The position numbers and the translations under genes are program-made. The notes beneath the pieces were generated by a model that worked only from the letters and a program-made list of their open reading frames with translations, was not told the origin of the DNA and searched no databases. From IMG/VR virus record IMGVR_UViG_3300007712_000002, positions 1 to 64,000 of that record: a stretch of DNA of 64,000 bases; one strand, given 5' to 3'. Origin of the DNA: a virus. Below are positions 6,698-57,703 of this stretch, in pieces. Within the stretch, counting starts at the first letter, position 1; every line of letters begins with the position of its first letter.

Positions 6698-7438
6698 ATG
6701 ACAGATCGCGCAAAAATCACAAAAGAGATTGAGTTGAGACTTGGTGGCCAGATGGTTGACGTTGAACTCGACCCTGAGCACTATGAACTATCAATCGACA
6801 AAGCCTTAGAAAAATATAGACAACGAAGTGAGAACGCTGTCGAAGAAAACTTTCACTTTTTTGAGATTACCGAAGATGTCAACACATACACATTTCCAGA
6901 CAATATCATTGACGTAAAAGATCTTTACGGAAGAGTAAGCGGAACAACATCAACCGGTGTTGAGTTTGAACCATTTGAAGCAAACTACTGGAACACCTTC
7001 CTGCGCGGCTATGGAAGCGGACAGAGCGGAACACTTGCTATGTATGACTTCCTAGCTCAATATCACGAAACCCTTGGTCGTTTGTTCGGTGCTGAATACA
7101 CATATACGTGGAACCGCACCAAGCACCAGTTGATATTGCACCGTCGACCACGATATCCGCGTCCTATATACGCACATGTCTATCAATATCGTGAAGAAGA
7201 CGACTTGTTTGTAGATCACTATGCGCTTCCATGGATCAAAGAGTATTCATTGGCTATGAGCAAGTTCATGCTGGGCGAAGCTCGTGGCAAGTTTGCAACT
7301 GTTGCTGGTCCACAGGGAGGCACTACGCTAAATGGCGATCAACTCAAAGCTGATGCAGCAGAAACCATGGCTCAGCTAGAAGAAGATATCAAGCTCTACA
7401 AAGAAGGTAGTGCTGGGCTTGGAATCATTATAGGATAA
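6698..7438 (+). CDS. gp13: Neck protein (T4 gp13-like)
   Basis: LRLGGQMVDVELD, WIKEY.LA...LGEARGKF...PQGG.TLNG. Confidence 0.75.
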   Translation: MTDRAKITKEIELRLGGQMVDVELDPEHYELSIDKALEKYRQRSENAVEENFHFFEITEDVNTYTFPDNIIDVKDLYGRVSGTTSTGVEFEPFEANYWNTFLRGYGSGQSGTLAMYDFLAQYHETLGRLFGAEYTYTWNRTKHQLILHRRPRYPRPIYAHVYQYREEDDLFVDHYALPWIKEYSLAMSKFMLGEARGKFATVAGPQGGTTLNGDQLKADAAETMAQLEEDIKLYKEGSAGLGIIIG

Positions 7439-7442
7439 GATT

Positions 7443-7676
7443 ATGGATATTAACAGAATAAAAGCTCTTGCGGGTGTTAAGGAAGCTAAAAAGACTCAAG
7501 GTTCACGATTGGATATTGTGGACTTGGATGGAATGACTGTGGGTGATCTGATCAACCATTTACAAACATATTATGATCCAACAGACCGAATCTCAGTTGA
7601 AGAAGAGTATGCTTACAGAGCGATTGGTGGCAGCCAAGAACCGCAAGACGTGATTAAAATTTATCCAGGCAGTTAA
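7443..7676 (+). CDS. Small protein with tag 1 leader (putative internal head protein)
   Basis: N-term MDINRIKALAGVKE. Confidence 0.65.
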   Translation: MDINRIKALAGVKEAKKTQGSRLDIVDLDGMTVGDLINHLQTYYDPTDRISVEEEYAYRAIGGSQEPQDVIKIYPGS

Positions 7677-11863: not shown

Positions 11864-14308
11864 ATGGCTACACTAGTATCACCAGGCGTTGACGTAACAG
11901 TTGTTGACGAAAGCGCATATGCCAGCCCGGGTTCTGGCACAATTCCTCTAGTCATTGTTGCTACAGCACAAGACAAGACAGATCCAACAGGAACAGAAAC
12001 TGATGGCATCGCAAAATACACAAAGGCAGCTAATGCCAATCTTGTTGTTCCAGTAACATCACAGAGAGAACTAACCCAATTTTTCGGAGACCCGACCTTT
12101 GCAGCCACTGAAGGTGCAGAGACAAGCGAATATGGTCTCCTAGCTGCATACAGTTATCTAGGACAAGGCTCACAAGCATACGTTGTCCGTGCAGACGTTG
12201 ACCTTGCAGGACTTGAATCAAGCGAAACAGCACCAACTGGACCAGCAAATGGCAACCAGTTTTGGCTAGACACTGACGCTAGCTCATATGGTATCCACGT
12301 TTGGAGCGGCTCAGCATGGGTCCTACAAACTGTAACCGTTGAGGTTGATCTTGCCGCTGCCAGCGGTGAAGTTTCTGACCCTAAGTCATATACACCATCA
12401 ACCACCGTGGGCGCAGCAGGAGACTTCCTAGTTGCCGTGCTAAGTGATGGCTCAACTGGATTTGCAATTGGTTATTTCTATAGTGACGGTTCAGCATGGG
12501 AAAGTGTTGACACAGCAAACATTGCTGACCTAGCAGCCACAGCAGTAACATATGCTCCACACTATAGCAGCCCATCATCACCAGCAGCAGACGACATTTG
12601 GGTCAAGACTACGTCACCAGGTAATGGTGTTAATCTTGTCATCTATCAGTCAAATAGCCTGGGTGTTTTCAGCCTTGTTGAGGTTGAAGGTGTTTCAAAC
12701 GACGGCGGCACAACTTACGTCGCACAAGATGGAACAAGCGCAACAGACATCATTAATGACATGACCGATGGTAATATTGCACTCAACTTTACAGCCGCAA
12801 ATGCTGGTTTTGAGATCGAAGAAGTTGATACCACAGCCAGTGCGATTGCTGAAGAAGTATATGCACAGGCAGCTGAGCCAACTGGAGATCCAGTTGCAGG
12901 AACATATTGGTATGATCCAACTGTTACAGATCTTGATCTTTACATCAATGACGGAACAGATTGGCTACGTATTGATTCAGCAGACGTAACATACTCAACA
13001 ATAGAGCCAACTTCACCAAGCACAGACGACATTTGGGTTGAAACAGATGGAACAGAAGCTGAATATCCCAAGCTTTACCGTTATGATGGTTCAAACTGGT
13101 TGCTATATGACAACACAGACCAAACCACAGACCGTGGTGTATTGTTCGCTGACTTCACAGCAGACAGCACAATCACAGCAGGTGCCGCACACGATTCAAA
13201 CAGCACTGACTTTGATTCAGCACCAGATGAAGCACTATACCCAACCAACATGCTAGCTGTCAACATGGCGCTGTCAAGCGGAACAGTTCGTGTATGGACT
13301 GAAGGCGTTTCAATCAACGGTGGAGCATCAACTGTTGATGCTTGGACCAATGCTGCCGCAAATAATGCCAATGGCAGCGGCGTGTTTAGTCGTTTGGCAC
13401 AACGTAAAGTTATTGCAACAGCAATGCAAGCAGCAGTAGCAGGTAACGAAGATCTACGTGATCCAAATCGTAACTTCACCCTACTTGCGGCTCCAAACTT
13501 CCCAGAACTAACAGACGAGTTGGTAACGCTTAACAGCGACCGTGGCGAAACAGGATTTATCATTATTGATACTCCAATGCGTCTCACACCAACAGAAGCT
13601 GTTAACTGGGTCCAAGGCACTGGCGCAACAGAAAACGGTGATGAAGGTCTTGTTACAAAGAACACCTACAGTGCGGTTTATTACCCAGCTGGGCGTTCAA
13701 CAACACCAGCCGGAACCACAGTAACCGTTCCAGCAAGTCACATGGTGCTCTACACCTACGCATACAACGACAACATCAGCTATCCATGGTTTGCTCCAGC
13801 AGGCTTGACGCGTGGTGTCGTGCAGAACGGTAGCGCAGTTGGTTACATCACAACAGAAGAAGAATTCAAGGCAGTATCACTTAGCCAAGGCCAGCGTGAC
13901 GCACTATACTTGAACAAGATGAACCCAATTGCTCAATTCCCTCTAGAGGGTGTAGTTGTGTTTGGTCAGAAGACCCTGCATTCAACCAGCAGCGCATTGG
14001 ATCGAGTCAACGTAGCACGTCTCGTTGCTTACCTACGTGAGCGTTTCGACGAGATTGCACGTCCGCTGCTCTTTGAACAGAACGACACATTGACACGTCA
14101 ACGTGCCGTCCAATTGTTCGAAAGCTTCCTAAGCGACTTGCTAACCAAGAGAGCACTCACTGACTTTGCGGTTGTATGTGACGAATCAAACAATACACCG
14201 ATTCGAATCGACCGCAACGAACTATATATTGACGTAGCAATTGCTCCGACCAAGGCGGTGGAATTCATCTACATTCCAATCCGTATTGTCAACACCGGCG
14301 CTCTATAA
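11864..14308 (+). CDS. gp18: Tail sheath protein (gp18-like) with large insertion
   Basis: LVSPGVDVTVVDES, PWFAPAGLTRG, FGQKTL..SALDRVNVARL, VCDESNNTP..IDRNEL; late promoter at 11816. Confidence 0.95.
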   Translation: MATLVSPGVDVTVVDESAYASPGSGTIPLVIVATAQDKTDPTGTETDGIAKYTKAANANLVVPVTSQRELTQFFGDPTFAATEGAETSEYGLLAAYSYLGQGSQAYVVRADVDLAGLESSETAPTGPANGNQFWLDTDASSYGIHVWSGSAWVLQTVTVEVDLAAASGEVSDPKSYTPSTTVGAAGDFLVAVLSDGSTGFAIGYFYSDGSAWESVDTANIADLAATAVTYAPHYSSPSSPAADDIWVKTTSPGNGVNLVIYQSNSLGVFSLVEVEGVSNDGGTTYVAQDGTSATDIINDMTDGNIALNFTAANAGFEIEEVDTTASAIAEEVYAQAAEPTGDPVAGTYWYDPTVTDLDLYINDGTDWLRIDSADVTYSTIEPTSPSTDDIWVETDGTEAEYPKLYRYDGSNWLLYDNTDQTTDRGVLFADFTADSTITAGAAHDSNSTDFDSAPDEALYPTNMLAVNMALSSGTVRVWTEGVSINGGASTVDAWTNAAANNANGSGVFSRLAQRKVIATAMQAAVAGNEDLRDPNRNFTLLAAPNFPELTDELVTLNSDRGETGFIIIDTPMRLTPTEAVNWVQGTGATENGDEGLVTKNTYSAVYYPAGRSTTPAGTTVTVPASHMVLYTYAYNDNISYPWFAPAGLTRGVVQNGSAVGYITTEEEFKAVSLSQGQRDALYLNKMNPIAQFPLEGVVVFGQKTLHSTSSALDRVNVARLVAYLRERFDEIARPLLFEQNDTLTRQRAVQLFESFLSDLLTKRALTDFAVVCDESNNTPIRIDRNELYIDVAIAPTKAVEFIYIPIRIVNTGAL

Positions 14309-16280: not shown

Positions 16281-16889
16281 ATGGCAGTTCTTGACAAGCT
16301 AAGTGTCCCAGTAAACGGCGAAAGCCAAGGTACACTGATGCCAAAACTACAATACCGCTTCCGCGTTAACTTCATCAACATGGGTGCAGGCGACACAAAA
16401 GTTGCAACAAACAACGTTGTCAGCGTCACACGTCCGAACCTTACACATGATGAAGTTCTAGTGGACACATACAACTCACGTATCTACCTAGCTGGTAAGC
16501 ACTCCTGGGAGCCTGTAACCATCGAGCTACGTGACGACATTACATCAGCAACTTCAGCACTACTTGACCAACAAGTTGCGAAGCAGATCGATATGGCAAA
16601 CCAGAGCTCACCACAGGCCGGTATTAGCTATAAATTCCAGTGTCAAATTGAAAACTTGAATGGTGCTAACCCAGATCCAGTCCCGCTAGACACATGGGTT
16701 TTGAGCGGTGCATATATTTCAAACCTAACATACAATGAGACCAACTACGGCAGTGGTGGTGAATACCAGACCATTTCAGTGCAGCTACGCTATGACAACG
16801 CACAACACTTTGTTGGTGCAATTGACAACCTTAGCGATCCAAACTTTAGCGTTGAGACTGTCACACAAGCGAACGCAACAGGTTCATAA
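16281..16889 (+). CDS. gp19: Tail tube protein (gp19-like)
   Basis: LMPKLQYRFRV.F, YNSRIYLAGKHSW, LRYDNA; late promoter GATAAATA at 16239; downstream of sheath. Confidence 0.85.
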   Translation: MAVLDKLSVPVNGESQGTLMPKLQYRFRVNFINMGAGDTKVATNNVVSVTRPNLTHDEVLVDTYNSRIYLAGKHSWEPVTIELRDDITSATSALLDQQVAKQIDMANQSSPQAGISYKFQCQIENLNGANPDPVPLDTWVLSGAYISNLTYNETNYGSGGEYQTISVQLRYDNAQHFVGAIDNLSDPNFSVETVTQANATGS

Positions 16890-16957: not shown

Positions 16958-17233
16958 ATGAATTTAGATAGACTAAAAGCTCTTTCAGGAATCAATGAAG
17001 ATGGAATTGATGACGAAAAAATGGAAGACATTGCTGATTTACTAATACAAGCATTTGATGGCGATCACATGTATGCTGACATCAAGAAAACCAAAAAATA
17101 TGTTGAAATAGACACAGGCGTAAGTCAGCATGAGCTTCATGTTTTTCCTGAGCATTTGAATAAATTATATCGTCATCCCAGTGTAGCGAGTGTAACAATC
17201 TATAGAGACAAAGCGAGAGCATATCTACAATAA
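16958..17233 (+). CDS. Small protein with tag 1 leader
   Basis: MNLDRLKALSGINE. Confidence 0.65.
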   Translation: MNLDRLKALSGINEDGIDDEKMEDIADLLIQAFDGDHMYADIKKTKKYVEIDTGVSQHELHVFPEHLNKLYRHPSVASVTIYRDKARAYLQ

Positions 17234-17883
17234 TGGCAATCACCAATTTCGCACAAGAGGTTTATAGCTCAGATAGTCCAGGCACATTGGATCTCATTCC
17301 TCGTCAGAGGTTTAATTTCACATTGCAGTTGACTACACATGATCGTGCGATTATCAATTACCACAAAGTTAGTGAAGTTACACAGCCGAGTTTTAGTGTT
17401 GATGGTCAGTTGATGAATCAATACAACAAAAAGCGTTTCGTGCAGACACGAATCAATTATGATCCGATCACAGTGAGTTTTTATGACACATTTGATGACC
17501 AGTGGTATAATATCATGCGTGACTATTTTGCTCATTACTATAACGGAACAGAAGGTTTGACAAGTAGGACTCAGCTTGAGGGAACAAGCACAGTGGAGAT
17601 CAACTTTGAAACAGATTTAGGTTTTACCCCCAATGCCACACGCAACTTCTTTCCTGAGATCCGTATTATACAGAATGGTATCCGCGGCCGTCACCGTGGT
17701 TGGATACTCAAGCAACCATATATTACCTCGGTGACTGGCGATACAATGAACTACAGCGACAGCAATCCAGTTCAGTGGGCAGTAACATTCCAGCCTGAGA
17801 GTGTTCAGACATATGTTGAATCAAGTCAGTTTGATGATGGAATAGAACCTAGCCGTTCTCCACGACCATCCAGCACCGGATAA
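17233..17883 (+). CDS. Tail-tube-like baseplate/tube initiator (gp54/gp48-like)
   Basis: QPSF....MNQYNKKR.VQTRINYDPITVSFYD, tube-fold paralogue. Confidence 0.6.
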   Translation: MAITNFAQEVYSSDSPGTLDLIPRQRFNFTLQLTTHDRAIINYHKVSEVTQPSFSVDGQLMNQYNKKRFVQTRINYDPITVSFYDTFDDQWYNIMRDYFAHYYNGTEGLTSRTQLEGTSTVEINFETDLGFTPNATRNFFPEIRIIQNGIRGRHRGWILKQPYITSVTGDTMNYSDSNPVQWAVTFQPESVQTYVESSQFDDGIEPSRSPRPSSTG

Positions 17884-20586: not shown

Positions 20587-22146
20587 GTGAATACTGTAAA
20601 TACAGATCTTGTCAAACGCCCGTATCAAGAACAGGCGATGTCACAAAAAGAACTGAGAGAGCTCGCACTTTGCTCAGTTAATCCGTTACATTTCATTAGA
20701 AACTATTGTTATATTCAACATCCAACAAAAGGACGGATGTCTTTCCAGTTGTTTGACTATCAGGAAGGGTTGATCAACAGCTACAATGATTATCGTTATT
20801 CAATCAGCTTGCTTAGTCGCCAGACTGGTAAGTCCACTTGCGCGGCTGCATACTTGCTTTGGTATGCTATGTTTAAGCCGGATAGCACCATATTAGTTGC
20901 TGCTCACAAACGTGACGGTGCACAAGAAATCATGACACGTCTACGTTATATGTATGAAAGTTGCCCAGACTATATTAGGGCTGGCGTAACAGCATATAAT
21001 AAAGGAAGCATTGAATTTGACAACGGTAGTAAAATTGTTGCGCAAGCTACCACAGAAAACACCGGACGTGGTCTTTCACTTTCACTAGTTTACTTGGACG
21101 AATTTGCCTTTGTGCCGCCACGTGTGGCCCAGGAATTTTGGACCAGTATCTCACCAACATTGAGTACTGGTGGTAAGTGTATTATTACCTCAACACCCAA
21201 CCAAGATGACGACCAATTTGCTCAAATCTGGAAGCAAGCTAATCGTCGCGTTGATGAGTTTGGTAATGAAACAGAAACAGGCGTAAATGGTTTCCGTCCA
21301 TATATTGTTAAGTGGGATCAACATCCAGATCGCGATCAAGAATGGGCAACGAACGAAAGATCCAAAATTGGCGATGAACGATTTCGCCGTGAGCATGAAT
21401 GTGAATTCATTGCGTTCGATGAAACTCTTATCAATTCTATTTTCCTCTCCGAAATGGACCTCGGCATGGAGCCACTGCGTCGAAGCGGCCAGATCCGATG
21501 GTATGATGCAATTCGTGATGAGCAAACCTATCTAGTGGCACTAGATCCAAGCCTAGGAACGGGCGGCGACCCTTCTGCTATTCAAGTATTTGCTATACCT
21601 GGCATGCGTCAGATTGGCGAATGGCAACACAATAAGACTCCAGTCCAAGGTCAAATCAAAGTATTAAAAAGTATTTTGGAAGAGCTTGAAGATGCTGCAC
21701 CGAATAGTGAAATCTACTACAGTGTAGAAAACAATACATTAGGTGAAGCCGCCCTAGTTTCTATCGAAGAAATGGGTGAAGAAAATCTGCCAGGGATTTT
21801 CCTTAGTGAGCCAAGGCGACGGGGTAACGTAAGAAGATATAGAAAAGGGTTTAACACAACCCACGGCACAAAACTTGCTTCTTGCGCAAAGCTCAAGCGT
21901 TGGGTTGAAGAAGAAACAATGAAGGTTCGCAGCAAGAACCTTACTCGCGAACTCAAAACTTTTGTAGCAAAGGGAAACAGCTATGCAGCAAAGGACGGGG
22001 ATACAGACGATCTTGTCATGTCAACCCTCCTTGCTGTTCGCATGGCCATGCAAGTTGCCAAATATGATGAGGACGCATTCACTGATCTCAAGGATAGTTT
22101 TGATGATGCTGAACTAAGACGACCCATGCCCATCGGAATATTGTGA
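20587..22146 (+). CDS. terL: Terminase large subunit (gp17-like)
   Basis: SRQTGKST Walker A, YLDEFAF, ITSTPN, LDPSLGTGGD, DDLVM. Confidence 0.95.
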   Translation: MNTVNTDLVKRPYQEQAMSQKELRELALCSVNPLHFIRNYCYIQHPTKGRMSFQLFDYQEGLINSYNDYRYSISLLSRQTGKSTCAAAYLLWYAMFKPDSTILVAAHKRDGAQEIMTRLRYMYESCPDYIRAGVTAYNKGSIEFDNGSKIVAQATTENTGRGLSLSLVYLDEFAFVPPRVAQEFWTSISPTLSTGGKCIITSTPNQDDDQFAQIWKQANRRVDEFGNETETGVNGFRPYIVKWDQHPDRDQEWATNERSKIGDERFRREHECEFIAFDETLINSIFLSEMDLGMEPLRRSGQIRWYDAIRDEQTYLVALDPSLGTGGDPSAIQVFAIPGMRQIGEWQHNKTPVQGQIKVLKSILEELEDAAPNSEIYYSVENNTLGEAALVSIEEMGEENLPGIFLSEPRRRGNVRRYRKGFNTTHGTKLASCAKLKRWVEEETMKVRSKNLTRELKTFVAKGNSYAAKDGDTDDLVMSTLLAVRMAMQVAKYDEDAFTDLKDSFDDAELRRPMPIGIL

Positions 22147-45104: not shown

Positions 45105-45132
45105 GCGTCGCCTCTAGGGGCGGCGCCTTTTT
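45105..45132 (+). terminator. Rho-independent terminator
   Basis: GCGTCGCCTC-TA-GGGGCGGCGC-CTTTTT. Confidence 0.75.
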
Positions 45133-45168: not shown

Positions 45169-45453
45169 ATGAAACTGAATGATATTACGGGAGAGAGTGA
45201 TTCACTAGTCGAGACCAAAATGGTCTGGGCAAAGTCAGGTGGAAAAGTCGCCCGCAAATATCGTTGCACATTTGGAAAACGTAAAGGTCGTGTTGTAAGC
45301 GATCCAAGCCAATGTAGCAAGCCAGTTGACATGAAAAAGCGTTTTACCCTGCGCCGCACCAAAGCGCAAAAAGGTAGTAGAATGACTCGCAAGGCACAAC
45401 GCACCAAACGCACAAATCCAGCGAGCAAGATGGTAAAGGCACTAAACAAATGA
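45169..45453 (+). CDS. Highly basic small protein with tag 2 leader
   Basis: MKLNDITGESDSLVE, then K/R-rich body (KYRCTFGKRKGRVV). Confidence 0.7.
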   Translation: MKLNDITGESDSLVETKMVWAKSGGKVARKYRCTFGKRKGRVVSDPSQCSKPVDMKKRFTLRRTKAQKGSRMTRKAQRTKRTNPASKMVKALNK

Positions 45454-45671
45454 CAGATATTGACAGACTACGCAAACTGAGTGGTATTTCAGAAGATAAT
45501 GACAATTCGACGCTAGAAAAAATCCAAAAAGGTATTAGTAACTACGTTCGTCAGGAAAATGATCATCATTGGCCTTTTGGTTTTGAGCGCGAGTTGGCTG
45601 AATTTATTCAAGCTGAGTTGGAAAAAGATGAGACAGTTGATAATATGCCACAATGGGGAGAACGCACATGA
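45450..45671 (+). CDS. Small acidic protein with tag 1 leader
   Basis: MTDIDRLRKLSGISE. Confidence 0.65.
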   Translation: MTDIDRLRKLSGISEDNDNSTLEKIQKGISNYVRQENDHHWPFGFERELAEFIQAELEKDETVDNMPQWGERT

Positions 45672-46747
45672 AACTTCTTGAAGCAATCGAAAGCACTTCA
45701 GTAAAAGATGCTATTCAAAAGATGGTAACTGATATGTTCAATGATGAGTTGGACGATAATCGTCTTGATCAAATTATTGATGGTCTTAGCCTTAGCGATC
45801 TACTTGCCCTTGACCAGGCCTATCAAGATGGCGACAAAGAAACAATTAGCAAAATACTTGGACCTTTTCCAAAATTGGAATACAGCATGGGCGCAGGCCG
45901 CCAATCCAGCAGCGCAGCAAGCAACCGTCCAGCACCAAGAACCGCAGGCGGCCAGCAAGCAAGCAAAAAACCAGGGACGCAAAAAACAGTAAACACCAAC
46001 CGTAACTATAGCAGCGGTGTCCAAAACGCTGTTACCACAAAGAATGTTGATGGTGAAAATGGAGACGATCCTGAAGCAATGGTTAAAGATGATGAACCAG
46101 TTGAAGAAACCAACAGTGGTTCATTCAATGACGAGCGATTCAATTCACATGAAGTTATCCGCGCCCTTGAAGGAATTGCAAGTGATGAAGAAGGCGATGA
46201 TCCTGTGTTTTCATCAGGACTACAACAGCTAGCCAATCGCATTAATCAAAGCTATCCTGATAGTGTTACTATCGCAGAAATCGTTAACATGCTACAGGAA
46301 CCACAGCTAAGTTCTATTGATAAAGATGACGTCTTTTATGCCTTGCAAGCTAGTGGAATTATGGATATACAGATGGAAGCAAGCGTCGGCGCGCCTGACT
46401 ATAATCCAGCAGCAGGTCGCCATAACCAATTCCAAAATAGTGACGACGTGATTGTCACAAGTGGTGAATGGGAAGGTAAGACTGGCATGGTTCAATCAGT
46501 GCGCCCTAATAGTGTCACCGTTCGTCTCTATAACCACGATTTCTTAATGGACTTTGAGCCAGATGAGATCGAACACAATGACTATGCAGATAGCGATCAA
46601 GAAGAAGACAACATGCGTTTGAGTATGGGCGACGACGAATATGATCGTATACATGGCGACTTGGGTTACAAAGATGAGTCAGTAACCGAAAATGTTGATG
46701 TCGTCGACATGGTTAAATGGCTCAAGCGTAGAGCAGGGATTGAATAA
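45668..46747 (+). CDS. Modular acidic protein: tag 2 N-term, KOW-like module, tag 1-like C-term
   Basis: MKLLEAIES; DVIVTSGEWEGKTGMV; ends MVKWLKRRAGIE. Confidence 0.65.
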   Translation: MKLLEAIESTSVKDAIQKMVTDMFNDELDDNRLDQIIDGLSLSDLLALDQAYQDGDKETISKILGPFPKLEYSMGAGRQSSSAASNRPAPRTAGGQQASKKPGTQKTVNTNRNYSSGVQNAVTTKNVDGENGDDPEAMVKDDEPVEETNSGSFNDERFNSHEVIRALEGIASDEEGDDPVFSSGLQQLANRINQSYPDSVTIAEIVNMLQEPQLSSIDKDDVFYALQASGIMDIQMEASVGAPDYNPAAGRHNQFQNSDDVIVTSGEWEGKTGMVQSVRPNSVTVRLYNHDFLMDFEPDEIEHNDYADSDQEEDNMRLSMGDDEYDRIHGDLGYKDESVTENVDVVDMVKWLKRRAGIE

Positions 46748-46971
46748 TGCGCAGTATTGTAACAAAAGGTGGTATTCCTACTTTTGTTTCCAAACATGAG
46801 TATACCTTTATTGAAGAAAACTTTGAACATGGAGACATGATTTATAAGAATGAACTTAACGAGCACGAAGCAGAAATTGCTAGAGTGCTAACTACTAGAG
46901 GAATACTACAGCGTTTTAGTGATGCTGATAAAGGCATTTACTACACGCAAAATATCAATCGAGGAATTTAA
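46747..46971 (+). CDS. Hypothetical protein
   Basis: 74 aa, ELNEHEAEIARVLTTRGIL. Confidence 0.6.
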   Translation: MRSIVTKGGIPTFVSKHEYTFIEENFEHGDMIYKNELNEHEAEIARVLTTRGILQRFSDADKGIYYTQNINRGI

Positions 46972-47151
46972 ATGTTACCAGTAGAACAGACCTGCCCTAA
47001 ATGTCACGGACGATTCATGGGGAGCGATGTCATTGGATATCCATGTCCCAGCTGCACAGGAATAAGTGAGCAAAGCCTCATTGAGGCACTCACATCAATG
47101 AACCAAATGTATTATCAGGAGGAAGAAAATGACAGACCAAGAACAGACTAA
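46972..47151 (+). CDS. 59-aa Zn-ribbon peptide (not in ORF track)
   Basis: MLPVEQTCPKCHG...CPSCTG; RBS GAGGA 6 nt upstream; fills the gap. Confidence 0.55.
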   Translation: MLPVEQTCPKCHGRFMGSDVIGYPCPSCTGISEQSLIEALTSMNQMYYQEEENDRPRTD

Positions 47152-47731
47152 CGCAATGGCTAACATCCTTGGCAAACTGGGCCAAGTTGAAGAAGGCACA
47201 TACGAAAAGACTGGGGGAGGTGCATCTAACGAAGACACAGCAGCAATGGCTGATGTTTTGCGTAAATTACAAGAAACCACTGGTGCGTTTTCACAAGACA
47301 TTGTGAATGAAAGCAAGAAGCAACCCGACTTGGGTGTTGCCGTTCAGGCGCAGCGCACAAAGGCTGGCGTCAGTGTCAGCCATTATGATATTCAGACCGA
47401 GAAGAAAACAGTCCATGAAGGTCTTACAAAAACATTCTATCATGTTGTTGACAACAAGACTGGAGAAATAGTTTATGAGGATCTTGGACTATTTGAAACT
47501 GCCATGGGTATTGTAAAACATCTTCTCTATACCAACAACAGCCAAAAACTATCTCGACTCGTCGACCTTGATCAAGAATATGTCGGGGCAATGATGGAGA
47601 CATATGGTTATAAAACAAGACTCAAGCGTATTGACGAAAGTTCAGTGAAGTATGATGTGACATCAGCCAAATATTCTAATGCTAAATCACGTCTCGGTGC
47701 TGTCAAGATGAAAATCCTCAAGGCTCTATAA
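47129..47731 (+). CDS. Hypothetical protein
   Basis: RBS GGAGGA; repeated AMA.[IV]L.KL motif; IVNES site. Confidence 0.65.
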   Translation: MTDQEQTNAMANILGKLGQVEEGTYEKTGGGASNEDTAAMADVLRKLQETTGAFSQDIVNESKKQPDLGVAVQAQRTKAGVSVSHYDIQTEKKTVHEGLTKTFYHVVDNKTGEIVYEDLGLFETAMGIVKHLLYTNNSQKLSRLVDLDQEYVGAMMETYGYKTRLKRIDESSVKYDVTSAKYSNAKSRLGAVKMKILKAL

Positions 47732-47778
47732 CTAGGGCTTTCGCATAAATACATTACAGACAGTTACGGAGATCTGAT

Positions 47779-48504
47779 ATGATTCTAAAAGAATTTACAA
47801 CACGAGGCGGAACGAAGCTAGAAAAGCTTACTCGCGCCCTCAATGAAAATTACAATTATGATATTAACTTCAAGGGTATGACAGTCGCCCGCGCCGAGCG
47901 CCTAGCTGAGCGAGCACGCCTGAAAGTTGAAGAAAACAGTGATGTCAACAAACGCATTAAATTTGCAATGATTGCAGAGAGCCTCGATCTCTGGATGCAA
48001 GCAAACGTACAAAGTGAACTTACATCATTCAATTTAGCTGAAGGGCTTGATGACGAAAGCATGGAAGAAGCAAAAGTCATCCTTGCAGCAAAAGAATTAA
48101 GCGATAAGATCCAGGGCATGATTGAAGATGCCGCAAAGATGCAGGTTCAAGACCTGCTTCCAATCGTTGATGCCATGAAAGCTGAATTGGGTGGAAGTGA
48201 GGCAGATGCCTTTGCTACATCCGCAGACGCAGCATTGGGCGGCCTAGTCGACACACTCAAGTCAGCCAAGGAAGAATATGACGGAGCAATTCAAGCTGCT
48301 CAAGGACAAGAACCAGCAACCGACATGGACAACTTTGACATGGACGGCGACATGGGCGACATGGGCGATGAAATGGACACAGACATGGACAACTTTGACA
48401 TGGACGGCGGCGATGATATGGAAGTTGACGATGAATTTGGTGGTGATGATGCAAATGTTGCTGATGACGAACCAACCGGACGTGAGATGAAAGACGAGAT
48501 CTAA
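47779..48504 (+). CDS. Prohead-core/scaffold-like acidic protein
   Basis: Late promoter 47744; LNE, LAE sites; helical; D/M-rich tail ending GREMK. Confidence 0.5.
   Translation: MILKEFTTRGGTKLEKLTRALNENYNYDINFKGMTVARAERLAERARLKVEENSDVNKRIKFAMIAESLDLWMQANVQSELTSFNLAEGLDDESMEEAKVILAAKELSDKIQGMIEDAAKMQVQDLLPIVDAMKAELGGSEADAFATSADAALGGLVDTLKSAKEEYDGAIQAAQGQEPATDMDNFDMDGDMGDMGDEMDTDMDNFDMDGGDDMEVDDEFGGDDANVADDEPTGREMKDEI
48322..48409 (+). repeat. 28-nt exact direct repeat (60-nt period) encoding DMDNFDMDG
   Basis: GACATGGACAACTTTGACATGGACGGCG at 48322 and 48382. Confidence 0.9.
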
Positions 48505-48842
48505 TGCGAGCACACGAGCTGTTTGATAGTGATTATAACGAGGATCTCCGTTCAGAAGTAATCACTCTGCTCACAGCCGTAAGTGCTGAAGGAATAGATC
48601 AAGTTAAAACTCAAAACTTGTTAATTGATCTCGAAAACCAGGGTTATGCAGTTGATGAGCAAAGTTTGCTTGAACTTCTCAATACAATGGAAGTGGTTGC
48701 GACTGCCAACAGTGATACAATTGAAATTGCCACAAGCGATGCGGACGTAATGGTCGGCCAGGATGCAGATGAAATTGAGCAAGACCGTGTTGATAATTTG
48801 GCTACTAATCAAGCAACAAAAGACCTGGGAGACGAAATATGA
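48504..48842 (+). CDS. Acidic protein with tag 2 leader
   Basis: MRAHELFD. Confidence 0.65.
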   Translation: MRAHELFDSDYNEDLRSEVITLLTAVSAEGIDQVKTQNLLIDLENQGYAVDEQSLLELLNTMEVVATANSDTIEIATSDADVMVGQDADEIEQDRVDNLATNQATKDLGDEI

Positions 48843-49093
48843 ACGATTTGAATAGGATGAGACAGCTAGCTGGAGTCAGAGAATGGGATGATGAAGGTGA
48901 AGATGAATTTGACGGTTCACAATCACTCTGGTTATTGCAAGTATCAGTTAGGCATGAAGGAACATATTTTGCTGGGATTTATTCATCACGAGAATTAGCA
49001 TGGGATGCATCTGAAAGACTTGATTTAAATAACGACGAATCTGTTAATGTAACACAAGTTACACTTGATGCAGAACCCGAAACCCTTTACTAA
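48839..49093 (+). CDS. Small acidic protein with tag 1 leader
   Basis: MNDLNRMRQLAGVRE. Confidence 0.65.
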   Translation: MNDLNRMRQLAGVREWDDEGEDEFDGSQSLWLLQVSVRHEGTYFAGIYSSRELAWDASERLDLNNDESVNVTQVTLDAEPETLY

Positions 49094-49102
49094 GGAAGAT
49101 AT

Positions 49103-49732
49103 ATGGCATATGATTTAACTGCAACCCAAGCCCGCACAGTGTCAACCACAGACCTAGTTATCTACAACGAGATTGACACAATTAGTCGAGCAATTATGGC
49201 CGCTGCACTAACAGGTGAATTAAGCACCACAGTAGATGACGGGACCACAATGACAGAAAGCACACCTACTATTACTGTAACCAGTTCTGGTGCAGGTGCC
49301 TTTACACCAAGTGAAACCATTGTGCTAGCAGGTTCAACAATTACACTTGGTGATGGTAGTGGTGACGGCACAAATGTCTACCAGGCAACAGCAGATATTA
49401 ATGCCGCTGATATTACTGGTCTTACAGCTACAACAGATGGAAGCGAAATTACACTATCATATGAACCACCCCAAGCAACCTGGGGAATAACACTGGCAGA
49501 AGGATCAGGCTCTGCATTGGCAGATTTGGGCTTTACAGCAGGATCAGAAAGTCCTGCAACACCAGAGAGCGTGGATTATTATAGTGTGTGGAGTGGCGTA
49601 ACAGAAGACAGAAAGAAATCATATGAGCTTGCACAAGTTGTAAATCATTTTCAGAATCTAGGATATAATATCCTTGCTAAAAAGAACACAACCACAGCAT
49701 CGAGCGTTATTAAATGGGAGATATATTGGTGA
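49103..49732 (+). CDS. Virion structural protein
   Basis: T/S/G-rich; central DINAA.ITGLTA...LA.LG insert; ends W.IYW. Confidence 0.55.
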   Translation: MAYDLTATQARTVSTTDLVIYNEIDTISRAIMAAALTGELSTTVDDGTTMTESTPTITVTSSGAGAFTPSETIVLAGSTITLGDGSGDGTNVYQATADINAADITGLTATTDGSEITLSYEPPQATWGITLAEGSGSALADLGFTAGSESPATPESVDYYSVWSGVTEDRKKSYELAQVVNHFQNLGYNILAKKNTTTASSVIKWEIYW

Positions 49733-50034
49733 TGGATATTAATAGACTGAGACAACTTTCTGGTATGGCAAATAATCCAAAGCCTGCTATTTTTGAAAGT
49801 TTTGATGAGAATACCAAAATAGCTATTGAGAGAAATAAAGGTCGAATAGGCCAACCAGTTCTTGGTCCAAAAGAAAATGAATTACCCAACACAATGGTGC
49901 TATCTAATGATGGAAATATTATAGCAGTGTCAGCTTCGGGTGGCGCAACTATTGTAATTTATGACACGCTTCTTGAAGAAAAGGAAGATATTTTCTTGCC
50001 TGACGAGGCAATTCGCGCACTCGTTAACATGTAA
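49732..50034 (+). CDS. Tag 1 array gene 1
   Basis: MDINRLRQLSGM...IFES, start 49732. Confidence 0.7.
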   Translation: MDINRLRQLSGMANNPKPAIFESFDENTKIAIERNKGRIGQPVLGPKENELPNTMVLSNDGNIIAVSASGGATIVIYDTLLEEKEDIFLPDEAIRALVNM

Positions 50035-50062
50035 TCAAACAAAGACTTAAAAAGGAAAGATA

Positions 50063-50284
50063 ATGGATATTAACAGATTAAAGAAGCTCAGTGGTTTAAC
50101 AGAAAGCGTGGACCTTGAAGAGCAGGTAGGAAATGAAGGCCTCCTTCGTGCAGCATTGCAATGCTTACAGGCTTGCAAAGAAGGCGATACATCAAGTTGT
50201 GATGAAGTTATTTCAGCTATCGAGTTTGAGCTTGACGGTCCTGAGTATTACGATCCTTATCCTAATATGGATCATCGTTATTAA
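50063..50284 (+). CDS. Tag 1 array gene 2
   Basis: MDINRLKKLSGLTES. Confidence 0.7.
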   Translation: MDINRLKKLSGLTESVDLEEQVGNEGLLRAALQCLQACKEGDTSSCDEVISAIEFELDGPEYYDPYPNMDHRY

Positions 50285-50299
50285 TAGGAAGATAGTAAA

Positions 50300-50551
50300 A
50301 TGAACATTAACAGATTAAAAAAACTAGCAGGCATGTTAACTGAGTCAATCGATGGTGAGGAAATCGGAGAACATCTTATTGAAATTTCAGAGCATATAGA
50401 CTACACAATTTCACATATAAATCAACTTCATAATCAAATTATTGGAGATGATCCAGAAGCAGATGCTATTTTAGCTGAAGTCTTGGAAACGATGAAAAAC
50501 CACGAAATAAAAATACGCAGGCTTGCAGAGTCTAGAATGACAGGAATTTAA
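50300..50551 (+). CDS. Tag 1 array gene 3
   Basis: MNINRLKKLAGMLTES. Confidence 0.7.
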   Translation: MNINRLKKLAGMLTESIDGEEIGEHLIEISEHIDYTISHINQLHNQIIGDDPEADAILAEVLETMKNHEIKIRRLAESRMTGI

Positions 50552-50561
50552 GGGCAATATA

Positions 50562-50804
50562 ATGGATATTAATAGACTAAGAGCACTTGCAGGCACAGAA
50601 GTTAGTGAAGCTCGACCACGCCGCGGCGAAGTTGGTGCTATGAGCCAAGAAGAAATCACTGAATATGTCTCTGAAGTTGCAGCACTTGTAAACCAGGCAG
50701 CAGACAAGTTAGAAAGGATCACACCAGAGCTAGGCCTTGATGCCGACGCTGATGGTATTATCCCAGAAATGCGCCGTATTGCAAAAGAACTAGGGAGCAT
50801 ATAA
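50562..50804 (+). CDS. Tag 1 array gene 4
   Basis: MDINRLRALAGTEVSEA. Confidence 0.7.
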   Translation: MDINRLRALAGTEVSEARPRRGEVGAMSQEEITEYVSEVAALVNQAADKLERITPELGLDADADGIIPEMRRIAKELGSI

Positions 50805-51118
50805 TGGATATTAACAGATTAAGAAAACTAGCAGGCATGATAAATGAGTCAGCTCAATTTGATGAAGATACAAGAAAGATGACGAATGAATTGCATCGCA
50901 TGATGGACGAGGGTGAAATTGATCCGCGCACAGTTGCAGATGCGGCACTCATATATATGAGCGAAGATGAAGTTGCAGACATGATGCACTCCAACGAAAT
51001 GATGCCATATGATTCATACGACGATGAAGATGAAGATGAAGATCCAGATTATTTCGACGACCTTGATGCTGGTGATACTGAAATGGATCGCCGTTCAGAC
51101 CTACGTAGAGGATGGTAA
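50804..51118 (+). CDS. Tag 1 array gene 5
   Basis: MDINRLRKLAGMINES; very acidic. Confidence 0.7.
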   Translation: MDINRLRKLAGMINESAQFDEDTRKMTNELHRMMDEGEIDPRTVADAALIYMSEDEVADMMHSNEMMPYDSYDDEDEDEDPDYFDDLDAGDTEMDRRSDLRRGW

Positions 51119-51120
51119 AA

Positions 51121-51366
51121 ATGGATATTGATCGACTAAAACAACTATCAGGATTGAATGAACTTGGTTATGACAGCCCACCTGGTCGCGGCAAGCCTAT
51201 GGGCGTTGAAGAAATCAACGCCAAAGTTGAAGCTGCAAAAGACAAGGCAATGGACCTCGCACGTGACCTTGAAGCACTGGCCCCACATCTTGGGCTTGAC
51301 GACGCAGAGGTCCGTGAGATGAGCGATTGGCTAGCAGGACTAGCTGGCGATTTGGATAGTATTTAA
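51121..51366 (+). CDS. Tag 1 array gene 6
   Basis: MDIDRLKQLSGLNE; body resembles gene 4. Confidence 0.7.
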   Translation: MDIDRLKQLSGLNELGYDSPPGRGKPMGVEEINAKVEAAKDKAMDLARDLEALAPHLGLDDAEVREMSDWLAGLAGDLDSI

Positions 51367-51409: not shown

Positions 51410-52087
51410 ATGATTGTTGAAAAATTCCCTTATCAAGAAATCAAACGCAAGCGCGTTGAAGGCAAGCGACTCTACGATACCGAGAGTGGCTTTCTTCCTT
51501 CTGTAACAACTATCCTTGACAAAACCAAACCAGCTGAAGCAGTTCGAAAGCTTAACGAGTGGCGACGACGTGTAGGGCAGGAAGAAGCCCAACGCATCAC
51601 AAACGAAGCTGCTAACGTCGGAACTCTTATGCACGGGTTCCTAGAGGAATGGTTACTGACTAACGACTTCAATGCCGGCAAAAACATGCCAAACATAGTG
51701 GCAAAGAAAATGGCTGAAACGGTCATTGGAAACATACAAGACGATTTAGACGAAGCTTGGGGCACAGAAATTGGTCTTTACTATCCTGGGCTTTACGCAG
51801 GAACAACTGACCTCGTAGGTGTATGGAAAGGCCGCCCAACCATCATGGATTTCAAGCAAACAAATCGTCCTAAGAAGCGTGAATGGATCGAAGATTATTT
51901 CATGCAAGGCGCAGCATATGGCCAAGCCCATAACGCTCTTTTTGATACTGACATTGAAAATGTCGCTATCTTTATGTGCTCACGCGATTGTGAGTTTCAA
52001 TTATTTGAGCTTGATCAAAACGAGTTCAAAGAGTATAGTGAAAAATTTGCTTATCGAGTGGGCAGATTTTACGAACTCGATAAATAA
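51410..52087 (+). CDS. PD-(D/E)XK exonuclease
   Basis: PSVTTIL, W...VG, GT.MH..LE, YAGTTD, IMDFKQ, Q..AY. Confidence 0.85.
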   Translation: MIVEKFPYQEIKRKRVEGKRLYDTESGFLPSVTTILDKTKPAEAVRKLNEWRRRVGQEEAQRITNEAANVGTLMHGFLEEWLLTNDFNAGKNMPNIVAKKMAETVIGNIQDDLDEAWGTEIGLYYPGLYAGTTDLVGVWKGRPTIMDFKQTNRPKKREWIEDYFMQGAAYGQAHNALFDTDIENVAIFMCSRDCEFQLFELDQNEFKEYSEKFAYRVGRFYELDK

Positions 52088-56755: not shown

Positions 56756-57703
56756 ATGAACGTTCCAGTCCATCGCAATACAGACAGTCGTATTTGCGGC
56801 GCATCAACAACAGTTAAAGGACAGAGCAATGTCTTCGTGAATAATCTGCTTGCAAGTGTGCAAGGAGATACCAATACTCACGGCGGCGGAGCTCTTTCTG
56901 CATCTGTAAATGATGGAACAGTGTTTATAAATGGCGTCAAGGTCGTTTTACAAGGCAGTGCTGCTTCTCCAGACAGTCTATGCCCGCCCCGTGGTCAACC
57001 ACATTGTAACCCTCGAAGCTCTAGCGGTAGTCCAGACGTTTTTGCATGTAACGGCGTAGCAGGTGGTGGAACGGGGAGCTCTGGGGCAGGCGCTGGTGGA
57101 CGCGATCAAGCAGCGGACAGCACTACCCAAGCACAAGGCCAGGCGCCTGATCCCAACGCTACACCAGAAGAAGATCTGGCTGATGATTATACAGATCCAA
57201 ATGGTGAAAAATCATTTGATCGCTCAGCCTTTAGTGAAGAAGATCTTGCACGTATCGATGAATTAGAAAGTGATCCGGCTTGGCGTAGTGAATTGGAAGC
57301 ATTGGAAGCAAAGTATCCAAACTTGGATCGAACCGAGCTATACCAAATTGTAAATGGTGAAAGCGACTTCGATCCACAAGCAACAAACCCGAGCGGTGCA
57401 ACTGGACTCTTCCAGCTGATGCCTGACAGCGCTCGTGAGATTGGATACTCTACTACTCAGATTTATAATCAGACACCAGCGCAGCAACTCAATACCTATG
57501 GCAAGTATCTGGACCGTTGGAATTACAATTCCAACAATTCTTTGGGTATGATGCAAGCCGCCCCTGCTTATGCAAGCAGAGCTCCAAACGAAGTTGTTTA
57601 TGGTGTAAACAGTGCGGCTTGGAAACAAAATCCAGGCTGGCGTTCTAGTAGAAATGGACCGATCACTGTGGGAAGCATTAACGACTATTATAGGAAAACC
57701 TGA
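56756..57703 (+). CDS. PAAR-like spike tip fused to lytic transglycosylase
   Basis: N-term VHR..D...CGA...VFVN...GD..H...VFING; C-term ESDFDP.A.N.SGATGLFQLMP; late promoter 56731. Confidence 0.75.
   Translation: MNVPVHRNTDSRICGASTTVKGQSNVFVNNLLASVQGDTNTHGGGALSASVNDGTVFINGVKVVLQGSAASPDSLCPPRGQPHCNPRSSSGSPDVFACNGVAGGGTGSSGAGAGGRDQAADSTTQAQGQAPDPNATPEEDLADDYTDPNGEKSFDRSAFSEEDLARIDELESDPAWRSELEALEAKYPNLDRTELYQIVNGESDFDPQATNPSGATGLFQLMPDSAREIGYSTTQIYNQTPAQQLNTYGKYLDRWNYNSNNSLGMMQAAPAYASRAPNEVVYGVNSAAWKQNPGWRSSRNGPITVGSINDYYRKT

Follow-up and report, generated by a model that had tools for sequence, protein, structure and literature searches.

Introduction

The capsid-targeting sequence (CTS) of phage T4 is a short N-terminal peptide that is common to the otherwise unrelated proteins IPI, IPII, IPIII and Alt and is removed by the gp21 protease, and it is the classic route for smuggling proteins into the cell with the phage DNA. 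The scaffolds of P22, phi29 and other phages carry a short helical coat-binding end at the C-terminus, which is their best-conserved part and is amphipathic with basic residues. Encapsulin cargo-loading peptides, which are short, terminal and usable at either end, direct unrelated cargo inside an HK97-fold shell. We know of no scaffold tail of the P22 or phi29 type that is copied onto other proteins. In T4, gp21 cuts after L/I-x-E (PMC9026906), and the T-even phages harbor variable and diverse internal proteins that have only the CTS in common (PMC3012670, PMC9026906). Here we analyzed the first 64 kb (positions 1 to 64,000, referred to as the window) of the 92.5-kb viral contig IMGVR_UViG_3300007712_000002, in which 11 open reading frames (ORFs) start with an 11-residue peptide, M-D-I-N-R-L-[RK]-x-L-[AS]-G, here called the tag. 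Sequence comparisons with related phages suggest that the tag is probably a capsid-loading label that uses the binding site of the scaffold tail and is then cut off.

The contig has no terminal repeat and is ~25% complete as estimated by CheckV; it is about a quarter of the genome of a jumbo T4-superfamily myovirus, a giant ocean phage. Its large terminase (TerL) is 53% identical to that of the Pseudomonas jumbo phage PA5oct and 50-51% identical to those of the Agrobacterium phage Atu_ph07 and the Sinorhizobium phage Phosso. Identical proteins are also encoded on a 332-kb contig.

A common N-terminal peptide in twelve genes

All 11 ORFs listed in a preliminary description of this DNA do begin with the near-identical peptide, and a twelfth tagged copy, MSNINEESFDRLRQLAGL, was found at position 87230 of the contig, outside the window (tagged genes are named here by their first position). 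The twelve tagged ORFs are all on the plus strand with a ribosome-binding site in front; the motif starts at residue 4 in 20082 and at residue 2 in 45450 and 48839, and the longest ORF of the 51121 gene starts at 51112. In the six-frame translation of the window, the loose core [RK]-h-[RK]-x-h-[ASG]-G (h, hydrophobic) had 12 matches, of which 11 are real and one runs across a stop, against 0.7-0.9 matches per shuffle with a maximum of 4 in 200 shuffles. A 12-residue hidden Markov model (HMM) of the tag gave 25 matches at 12-23 bits in this contig and three related ones, with the next best at 6.6 bits, and all but one of the true matches sit at the extreme start or end of an ORF. No description of the tag was found in the open-access literature searched.

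The codons used for the tag vary, with Ser encoded by TCA, TCT or AGT, Arg by AGA, AGG, CGA, CGC or CGT, and Leu by five codons, and the 30 nt on each side of the 33-nt tag are ~32% identical, the similarity ending sharply at the tag edges. With differing synonymous codons between unrelated flanks, it is the peptide that is under selection, and the same codon variation and flank divergence led us to reject a repeat at the DNA level as the main explanation. It could still be argued that tandem duplication left the common start behind as a mere relic, or that this start is a recombination cassette of the DNA, and that the peptide is functionless. Within the array of tagged genes described below, codon identity at synonymous positions of the tag does exceed the expectation from codon usage (54% vs. 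32%), two array members are paralogous, and modules are shuffled among homologues, with 50063-like middles joined to the 50804-type C-terminal module. However, about half of the synonymous positions differ (e.g., Ser TCA vs. AGT, Arg AGA vs. CGC), the similarity does not extend past the tag, and the same peptide was observed on unrelated proteins in distant phages (Atu_ph07, PA5oct and several IMG/VR contigs), at C-termini and on the scaffold. The relic explanation is largely refuted by this codon, flank and distribution evidence, and the probability left to it is minimal; the excess of codon identity agrees with duplication or gene conversion in the fairly recent past rather than with a DNA element.

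As the preliminary description had it, the bodies that follow the tag are short, acidic and mostly unrelated; their lengths range from 61 to 158 residues (61-138 in the window) and their isoelectric points (pI) from 4.05 to 5.2. The genes 50562 and 51121 form a paralogue pair (32% identity, E 3e-4), and 50300 and 50562 are weakly alike. None of the tagged bodies could be placed with confidence in a Pfam or PHROGs family, and none was assigned a function. The weak matches were those of 49732 to phrog_4363, 'internal virion protein' (E 2e-4), of 20082 to phrog_24078, of unknown function (E 6e-5), and of the 48839 body to DUF7336 (E 0.003), a family to which the ESM Atlas also gave a weak fold likeness. 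The structure prediction for 50804, made with 14 homologues, was poor (pLDDT 61) and shows no more than a helix that runs through the tag, a small body that is also helical, and an acidic, disordered tail. Two tagged proteins on other IMG/VR contigs (L051:13550 and L052:292) have the body motif PGT[ED]EWF[RK]LWFSRP in common.

The tag resembles the C-terminal end of the scaffold

The tag HMM also gave a low-scoring match at the extreme C-terminus of an ORF of ~370 residues in two related contigs. This ORF is placed between a Peptidase_S77 protease (PF03420, T4 gp21-type) and a gp23-family capsid gene (PF07068), and the order in the related contig G002 is T4-type portal, protease, ~370-residue ORF and capsid gene. 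Because it lies between the S77 protease and the gp23-type capsid gene, downstream of the portal, the ORF occupies the scaffold position, and its homologue is named scaffolding protein in several deposited genome records. The order of protease, scaffold and capsid is the same in PA5oct, 121Q, GAP32 and RaK2, and in Atu_ph07 the scaffold gene precedes the capsid gene. The scan of the contig and its relatives that the preliminary description had proposed, with the scaffold C-terminus included, led to a conserved scaffold tail.

The scaffold tail reads ..SADIIELKKLAGLS-stop in the related contigs, and 117 of the 120 best metagenomic scaffold homologues (down to 55% identity) end in [ST]-A-[DE]-I-[IV]-x-[LI]-[KR]-K-L-A-G-[LI]-[SN]. 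The corresponding ends are ..VEELRRLAGIK in PA5oct gp330 and ..EINDLKRLAGIKK (..INDLKRLAGIKK) in Atu_ph07 gp214. When A-D-I-I-E-L-K-K-L-A-G-L of the scaffold is set against M-D-I-N-R-L-R-K-L-A-G-M of the tag, the two have D, I, L, K/R, K, L, A and G in common, and each ends in a hydrophobic residue. It is possible that the tags co-vary with the scaffold tail of their own phage: the tag of the Atu_ph07 NUDIX enzyme, MNIDKLKKLAGIKKDE, repeats the ..AGIKK of the Atu_ph07 scaffold, and the marine tags continue with G-[ILM]-[SNT], as the marine scaffold tails do. In the enterobacterial relatives 121Q, GAP32 and RaK2 the scaffold tail has diverged to ..L-S-G-[IM]-x-K-K (..LSGINKK and similar), and searches of these three genomes with that tail motif of their own and with the marine tag gave no further match. 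A complex prediction for the capsid protein of a relative (32-row alignment) with the first 40 residues of that relative's tagged protein gave a score of 0.10 and a mark of 0.32, which speaks neither for nor against binding.

A head-protease site follows the tag

In 16 of 23 cases from four contigs, the 8 residues that follow the tag Gly include a hydrophobic-x-Glu site, [LIVM]-x-E, against a background of 9.7% in random 8-residue windows of this phage's proteins (p 7e-12), the 23 cases including orthologues and so not being independent. In the window alone, the h-x-E reported to follow soon after the tag is present at this distance in nine of the 11 copies. The S77 protease is encoded in the related contigs G002 and G003 (78 bits) and is annotated in PA5oct. 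The capsid protein of a relative reads ..KKALTE|SATVGA where T4 gp23 has its cleavage site ..SFLTE|AEIGG, and because of this matching site at the gp23 cleavage position, the protease specificity is probably conserved. The prohead proteases of PA5oct (gp331, L042:1712-2344, ..REIIKLISELKK) and G002 (L032:432-1067, ..EEMIRFIQDLGRK) themselves have similar amphipathic ends, the pattern of which recalls the scaffold-tail core D-I-I-x-L-K-K-L and which may be the protease's own loading signal.

Taken as a capsid-loading label, the peptide D-I-x-R-L-[RK]-x-L-[AS]-G-h would be a portable address copied from the conserved C-terminal tail of the phage's own scaffold. A tagged protein would occupy the prohead site that normally holds the scaffold tail, most plausibly the inner face or the N-terminal propeptide of the gp23-type capsid protein, or the scaffold core itself, and would thereby be built into the prohead core. 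In the small array proteins, h-x-E closes the tag and is the presumed recognition site of the T4 gp21-type (S77) prohead protease, which would remove the tag and free the body inside the head. The cargo loaded in this way would be variable and fast-changing, with at least 12 small acidic proteins in this phage and, in relatives, larger proteins and a NUDIX enzyme as well.

Copies at other positions and detection in phage particles

Copies of the motif at C-termini and inside proteins, which the preliminary description had missed, were observed in relatives. In more distant contigs, the acidic pre-terminase protein (the 20082 family) begins with MNLEDLIKLAGV and ends in ..MLRKLAGI-stop or ..NRLKSLAGI-stop, one version of this family carries three copies of the motif (N-terminal, internal and C-terminal), and the neighbor of the pre-terminase protein ends in ..LLKKLAGI-stop. 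A 979-residue protein located after the Phosso terminase ends in ..ARLRKLAGI-stop. A peptide that is portable between protein ends and stops right after ..AGI would be as expected of a docking motif modelled on a C-terminal tail. A profile search of PA5oct (287 kb) revealed three copies, which are the scaffold tail, gp249 (..KEIDRIKKLAGIS.. near the C-terminus) and gp281, an N-terminal variant that is encoded just upstream of the terminase and begins with MFNINDILRLAGVQAVKE. In the PA5oct record, gp281 and gp249 are marked as structural and as found by tandem mass spectrometry with electrospray ionization (ESI-MS/MS); the scaffold gp330 has no such mark although its neighbors have one, a missing mark being weak evidence. 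In Atu_ph07, gp257 (L010:1099-1545, minus strand) is a NUDIX-domain enzyme (PF00293, E 6e-11) with an N-terminal tag and without a nearby h-x-E, and a candidate for an enzyme packaged by a cultured phage.

The occurrence at both protein ends also bears on the alternative that the motif serves some non-capsid partner, such as a phage protease adaptor or a chaperone, as a general peptide for docking or degradation, with the scaffold tail as one client of many, and that it controls stability or timing and not location. Degrons are typically short signals at either end of a protein, the contig codes for a ClpS homologue (PF02617, E 2e-25), ClpX-like, ClpS-like and FtsH-like genes are annotated in the PA5oct record, and tagged genes occur beyond the structural regions (87230 and the Atu_ph07 NUDIX enzyme). 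However, ClpS reads N-terminal Phe, Leu, Trp or Tyr and not the tag peptide, and the motif is best conserved on the scaffold, a protein known to act inside the prohead; a head-protease site comes after the tag, and two PA5oct carriers were detected in phage particles. We give this alternative a slight probability.

The core of the loading label is backed by sequence evidence. The preliminary description had read the tag as a targeting signal that possibly copies a scaffold end and is cut after h-x-E, and the match to the scaffold tail, the h-x-E enrichment, the S77 protease in relatives and the two detected PA5oct carriers speak for it; capsid binding, packaging, cutting, the fate of the cargo (kept and injected, or expelled) and its proposed DNA-mimic or anti-defence role are inferences that go beyond this evidence. 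Several points weigh against the label. The phage's own scaffold, prohead protease and capsid genes were not found on the ~25%-complete contig, so that the scaffold match rests on relatives with 50-90% identical proteins. Comparison of the clade scaffold with T4 gp22 gave E 0.67 in BLASTP and E 0.065 over 58 columns in hhalign, which does not demonstrate homology. Three of the 12 tags have no nearby h-x-E, and tags of this kind are mostly on longer proteins (20082, 87230 and their orthologues). The mass spectrometry of PA5oct was performed on purified lysate and gave 93 products, seven of which are enzymes unrelated to the virion (PMC7318152); because ribonucleotide reductase and other such enzymes were detected along with them in purified lysate, detection is weak proof of location. 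The tagged NUDIX enzyme of Atu_ph07 sits among metabolic genes. Finally, the acidity of the cargo bodies contrasts with the T4 internal proteins, for which a basic character is described (PMC9026906).

Tagged genes and turnover of the array

Six tagged genes stand in tandem at 49732-51366, as had been described, between the counterpart of the PA5oct virion protein gp245 at the upstream edge (49103..49732, plus strand; assigned by position and a common C-terminal ending) and an exonuclease at the downstream edge (51410..52087, plus strand; the PA5oct gp244 counterpart by annotation and position). All on the plus strand, they are 49732..50034 (100 aa, MDINRLRQLSGM.., with its first h-x-E at residues 24-26, IFE), 50063..50284 (73 aa, MDINRLKKLSGLTE..), 50300..50551 (83 aa, MNINRLKKLAGMLTE..), 50562..50804 (80 aa, MDINRLRALAGTEVSE.., the paralogue of 51121), 50804..51118 (104 aa, MDINRLRKLAGMINE.., with a small helical body, an acidic tail and the C-terminal module ..DYFDDLDAGDTEMDRRSDLRRGW) and 51121..51366 (81 aa, MDIDRLKQLSGLNE..). 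One conserved gene separates them from 48839..49093 (plus strand, 84 aa, MNDLNRMRQLAGVRE.., weak DUF7336-like body), an extra tagged gene of this phage that is inserted one gene upstream of the array and is not at this position in PA5oct.

The number of tagged genes between the gp245 counterpart and the exonuclease is 0 in PA5oct, where the interval contains no gene at all, 1 in G002, 4 in G003 and 6 in this phage. The sole array gene of G002 is an orthologue of 50562, and 49732 has a 65% identical orthologue in G003; a DNA search of the region matched the exonuclease and nothing else. Homologues of 50804 have differing middles, some of them 50063-like, with the same tag and the same C-terminal module, and these 50063-type middles on 50804-type ends point to shuffling of modules within the array. 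Across the homologues P0008-P0018 of 50804-51118, the module ..DYFDDLDAGDTEMDRRSDLRRGW is nearly invariant despite the differing middles. In its variability the tagged set is like the internal proteins of T-even phages, which differ from phage to phage (PMC3012670, PMC9026906).

The remaining tagged genes of the window, also on the plus strand, are scattered. Two of them are single insertions among tail genes, namely 7443..7676 (77 aa, MDINRIKALAGVKE..), which is inserted after the head-tail adaptor gene (6698-7438), and 16958..17233 (91 aa, MNLDRLKALSGINE..), which lies between both tail tube genes (16281-16889 and 17233-17883). A third, 45450..45671, encodes 73 aa (MTDIDRLRKLSGISE..). The 20082..20540 gene (152 aa, MDKTELDRLRQLAGNE..) belongs to a conserved family just upstream of the large terminase (20587-22146), and its orthologues in related contigs are tagged too, as are its positional counterparts PA5oct gp281 and Atu_ph07 gp111. 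A role of 20082 as small terminase, considered since the gene precedes TerL, was set aside: the protein is very acidic, and PA5oct gp281 is annotated as a detected virion protein.

Turnover and composition of the tagged set bear on the main rival of the loading label, according to which the tagged proteins are accessory prohead-core or scaffold-like parts or assembly modulators, as are T4 gp67 and gp68, which would enter through the scaffold-tail site, set head size or shape or fill the head, and be degraded and expelled before the DNA comes in, without being injected. Their bodies are as acidic (pI 4.05-5.2) as T4 core proteins and unlike the basic T4 internal proteins (PMC9026906), the array follows the extremely acidic counterpart of the PA5oct virion protein gp247, the body of 50804 is modelled as short and helical and its acidic tail as disordered, and conservation of the pre-terminase tagged family throughout the clade would suit a morphogenetic part. 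Body acidity fits the expelled core proteins of T4 (gp22, gp67 and gp68) equally well as it fits DNA mimics. On the other hand, the array genes are gained and lost between phages whose neighboring proteins are 60-90% identical, and their bodies are unrelated, which is unusual for parts that determine head geometry; tagged genes are scattered singly among tail genes (7443, 16958), and one cargo in Atu_ph07 is an enzyme. We regard expelled core parts as an unlikely explanation, though a likelier one than the docking peptide or the duplication relic.

A second common leader

A second common leader, M-[RK]-h-x-[ED]-h-x-E, was seen on 7688, 18370, 19124, 22143, 25248, 41157, 42062, 43616, 45169, 45668, 47779 and 48504, and is carried by, among others, a GNAT acetyltransferase (22143) and a protein with a KTSC domain (18370). 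This leader resembles the T4 CTS more than the MDINRL tag does, and it also resembles the N-termini of the clade scaffolds (MPKSFKDIL.. in G002, MTVKFEHIL.. in PA5oct and MSKLEKLLKE.. in 121Q) and that of T4 gp22 (MLKEQLIAEA). Possibly this leader is another loading tag, copied from the opposite end of the scaffold. A joint reading would see a two-ended address code taken from the phage's own scaffold, in which a copy of the C-terminal tail at either end of a protein would be necessary and sufficient for head loading, the second leader, copying the scaffold N-terminus, would load a second class of proteins including enzymes, and the fast-changing acidic cargo would be injected DNA-mimic or counter-defence proteins. 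We consider this combination doubtful; if true, the heads of giant phages could be loaded with cargo in a programmable way, and new anti-defence genes could be catalogued.

Gene order and surroundings

Besides the genes named above, the window codes for a tail sheath (11864-14308), which marks a contractile tail, a gp32-like SSB, UvsX, a primase and a DnaB-type helicase, and the order of adaptor, sheath, tube, terminase, UvsX, primase and helicase is the same as in PA5oct. Next in the PA5oct-like order come the block of gp259-gp245, which are annotated as virion proteins (ESI-MS/MS), then the exonuclease and the ribonucleotide reductase. Upstream of the array, on the plus strand, this block includes a larger protein at 45653..46747 (start given earlier as 45668), which is the counterpart of the PA5oct virion protein gp249 as judged by position and by eye. 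The C-terminal variant of the motif reported on this protein is present as the degenerate ..VKWLKRRAGIE-stop, and the homologue in a related contig ends in ..EWLKRRAGIA-stop. It is followed by a very acidic protein (47779..48504, plus strand), the counterpart of gp247 by position, acidic C-terminal region and phrog_14154, for which tblastn against the phage collection gave no match, and by the counterpart of the virion protein gp246 (48504..48842, plus strand; position and phrog_15050).

The statement that all tagged genes lie in late or structural regions holds within the window, where it is backed by synteny with PA5oct virion genes, but it does not extend to the twelfth copy (87230), in the last third of the contig and outside the mapped structural synteny, or to the Atu_ph07 NUDIX carrier. 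At 45105-45126, directly before 45169, we observed a strong hairpin that resembles a terminator, with 9 pairs (7 G-C) and a T run behind it, and because it precedes that gene, the genes 45169-51366 may form one transcription unit. The T4 late promoter (TATAAATA) was not found around the array, and sigma-70 sites are not enriched there. The protein encoded at 56756-57703 combines a PAAR motif and an SLT lytic transglycosylase domain, and agrees with PA5oct gp239 (tail-tip lysozyme) in annotation and position. Outside the window, the ClpS adaptor homologue (PF02617, E 2e-25) is located at 65688-65984 of the contig (L060:89-385), and the 425-aa ORF after it matched no Pfam family.

Comparison with known systems

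Several of these features are shared with the T4 CTS of IPI, IPII, IPIII and Alt. Like the CTS, the tag is a short N-terminal peptide common to otherwise unrelated proteins, an L/I-x-E-type site follows it (known here from sequence alone), this phage is a T4-superfamily member and its close relatives encode an S77 protease, and the cargo set varies between related phages (PMC9026906, PMC3012670). However, the T4 CTS, MKTYQEFIAE (PMC8442874), has no pattern in common with M-D-I-N-R-L-R-x-L-A-G, and for this reason the tag is not taken as a homologue of it. Moreover, the tag copies the C-terminal and not the N-terminal end of the scaffold, it is also found in C-terminal and internal positions in relatives, its cargo is acidic whereas that of T4 is basic, and at least 12 proteins are tagged in about a quarter of the genome, compared with four or so in T4. 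In our own comparison, the T4 CTS resembles the N-terminus of the T4 scaffold gp22, MLKEQLIAEA, and on account of this resemblance the copying of a scaffold end may be a shared principle.

With the scaffold ends of P22 and phi29, the tail described here shares a conserved extreme C-terminal peptide that is amphipathic and has basic residues, although the helix-turn-helix of P22 is longer. The encapsulin peptides are an analogy only, as they belong to another sequence class and a non-viral compartment, and have neither a protease step nor scaffold mimicry.

In this phage and its relatives the origin of the tag can be read from the sequence, as the tail of their own scaffold reused at either protein end; scaffold and cargo would share a concrete putative binding site, and new cargo could be recruited by the addition of 11 residues. 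A dozen small proteins in a quarter of a genome are thereby flagged as candidate injected factors of ocean phages that are abundant and uncultured, and the cultured relatives PA5oct and Atu_ph07 carry one or two tagged proteins. Measured against these known systems, the best-supported reading is that the tag follows a principle like that of the T4 CTS without being a relative of the CTS in sequence.

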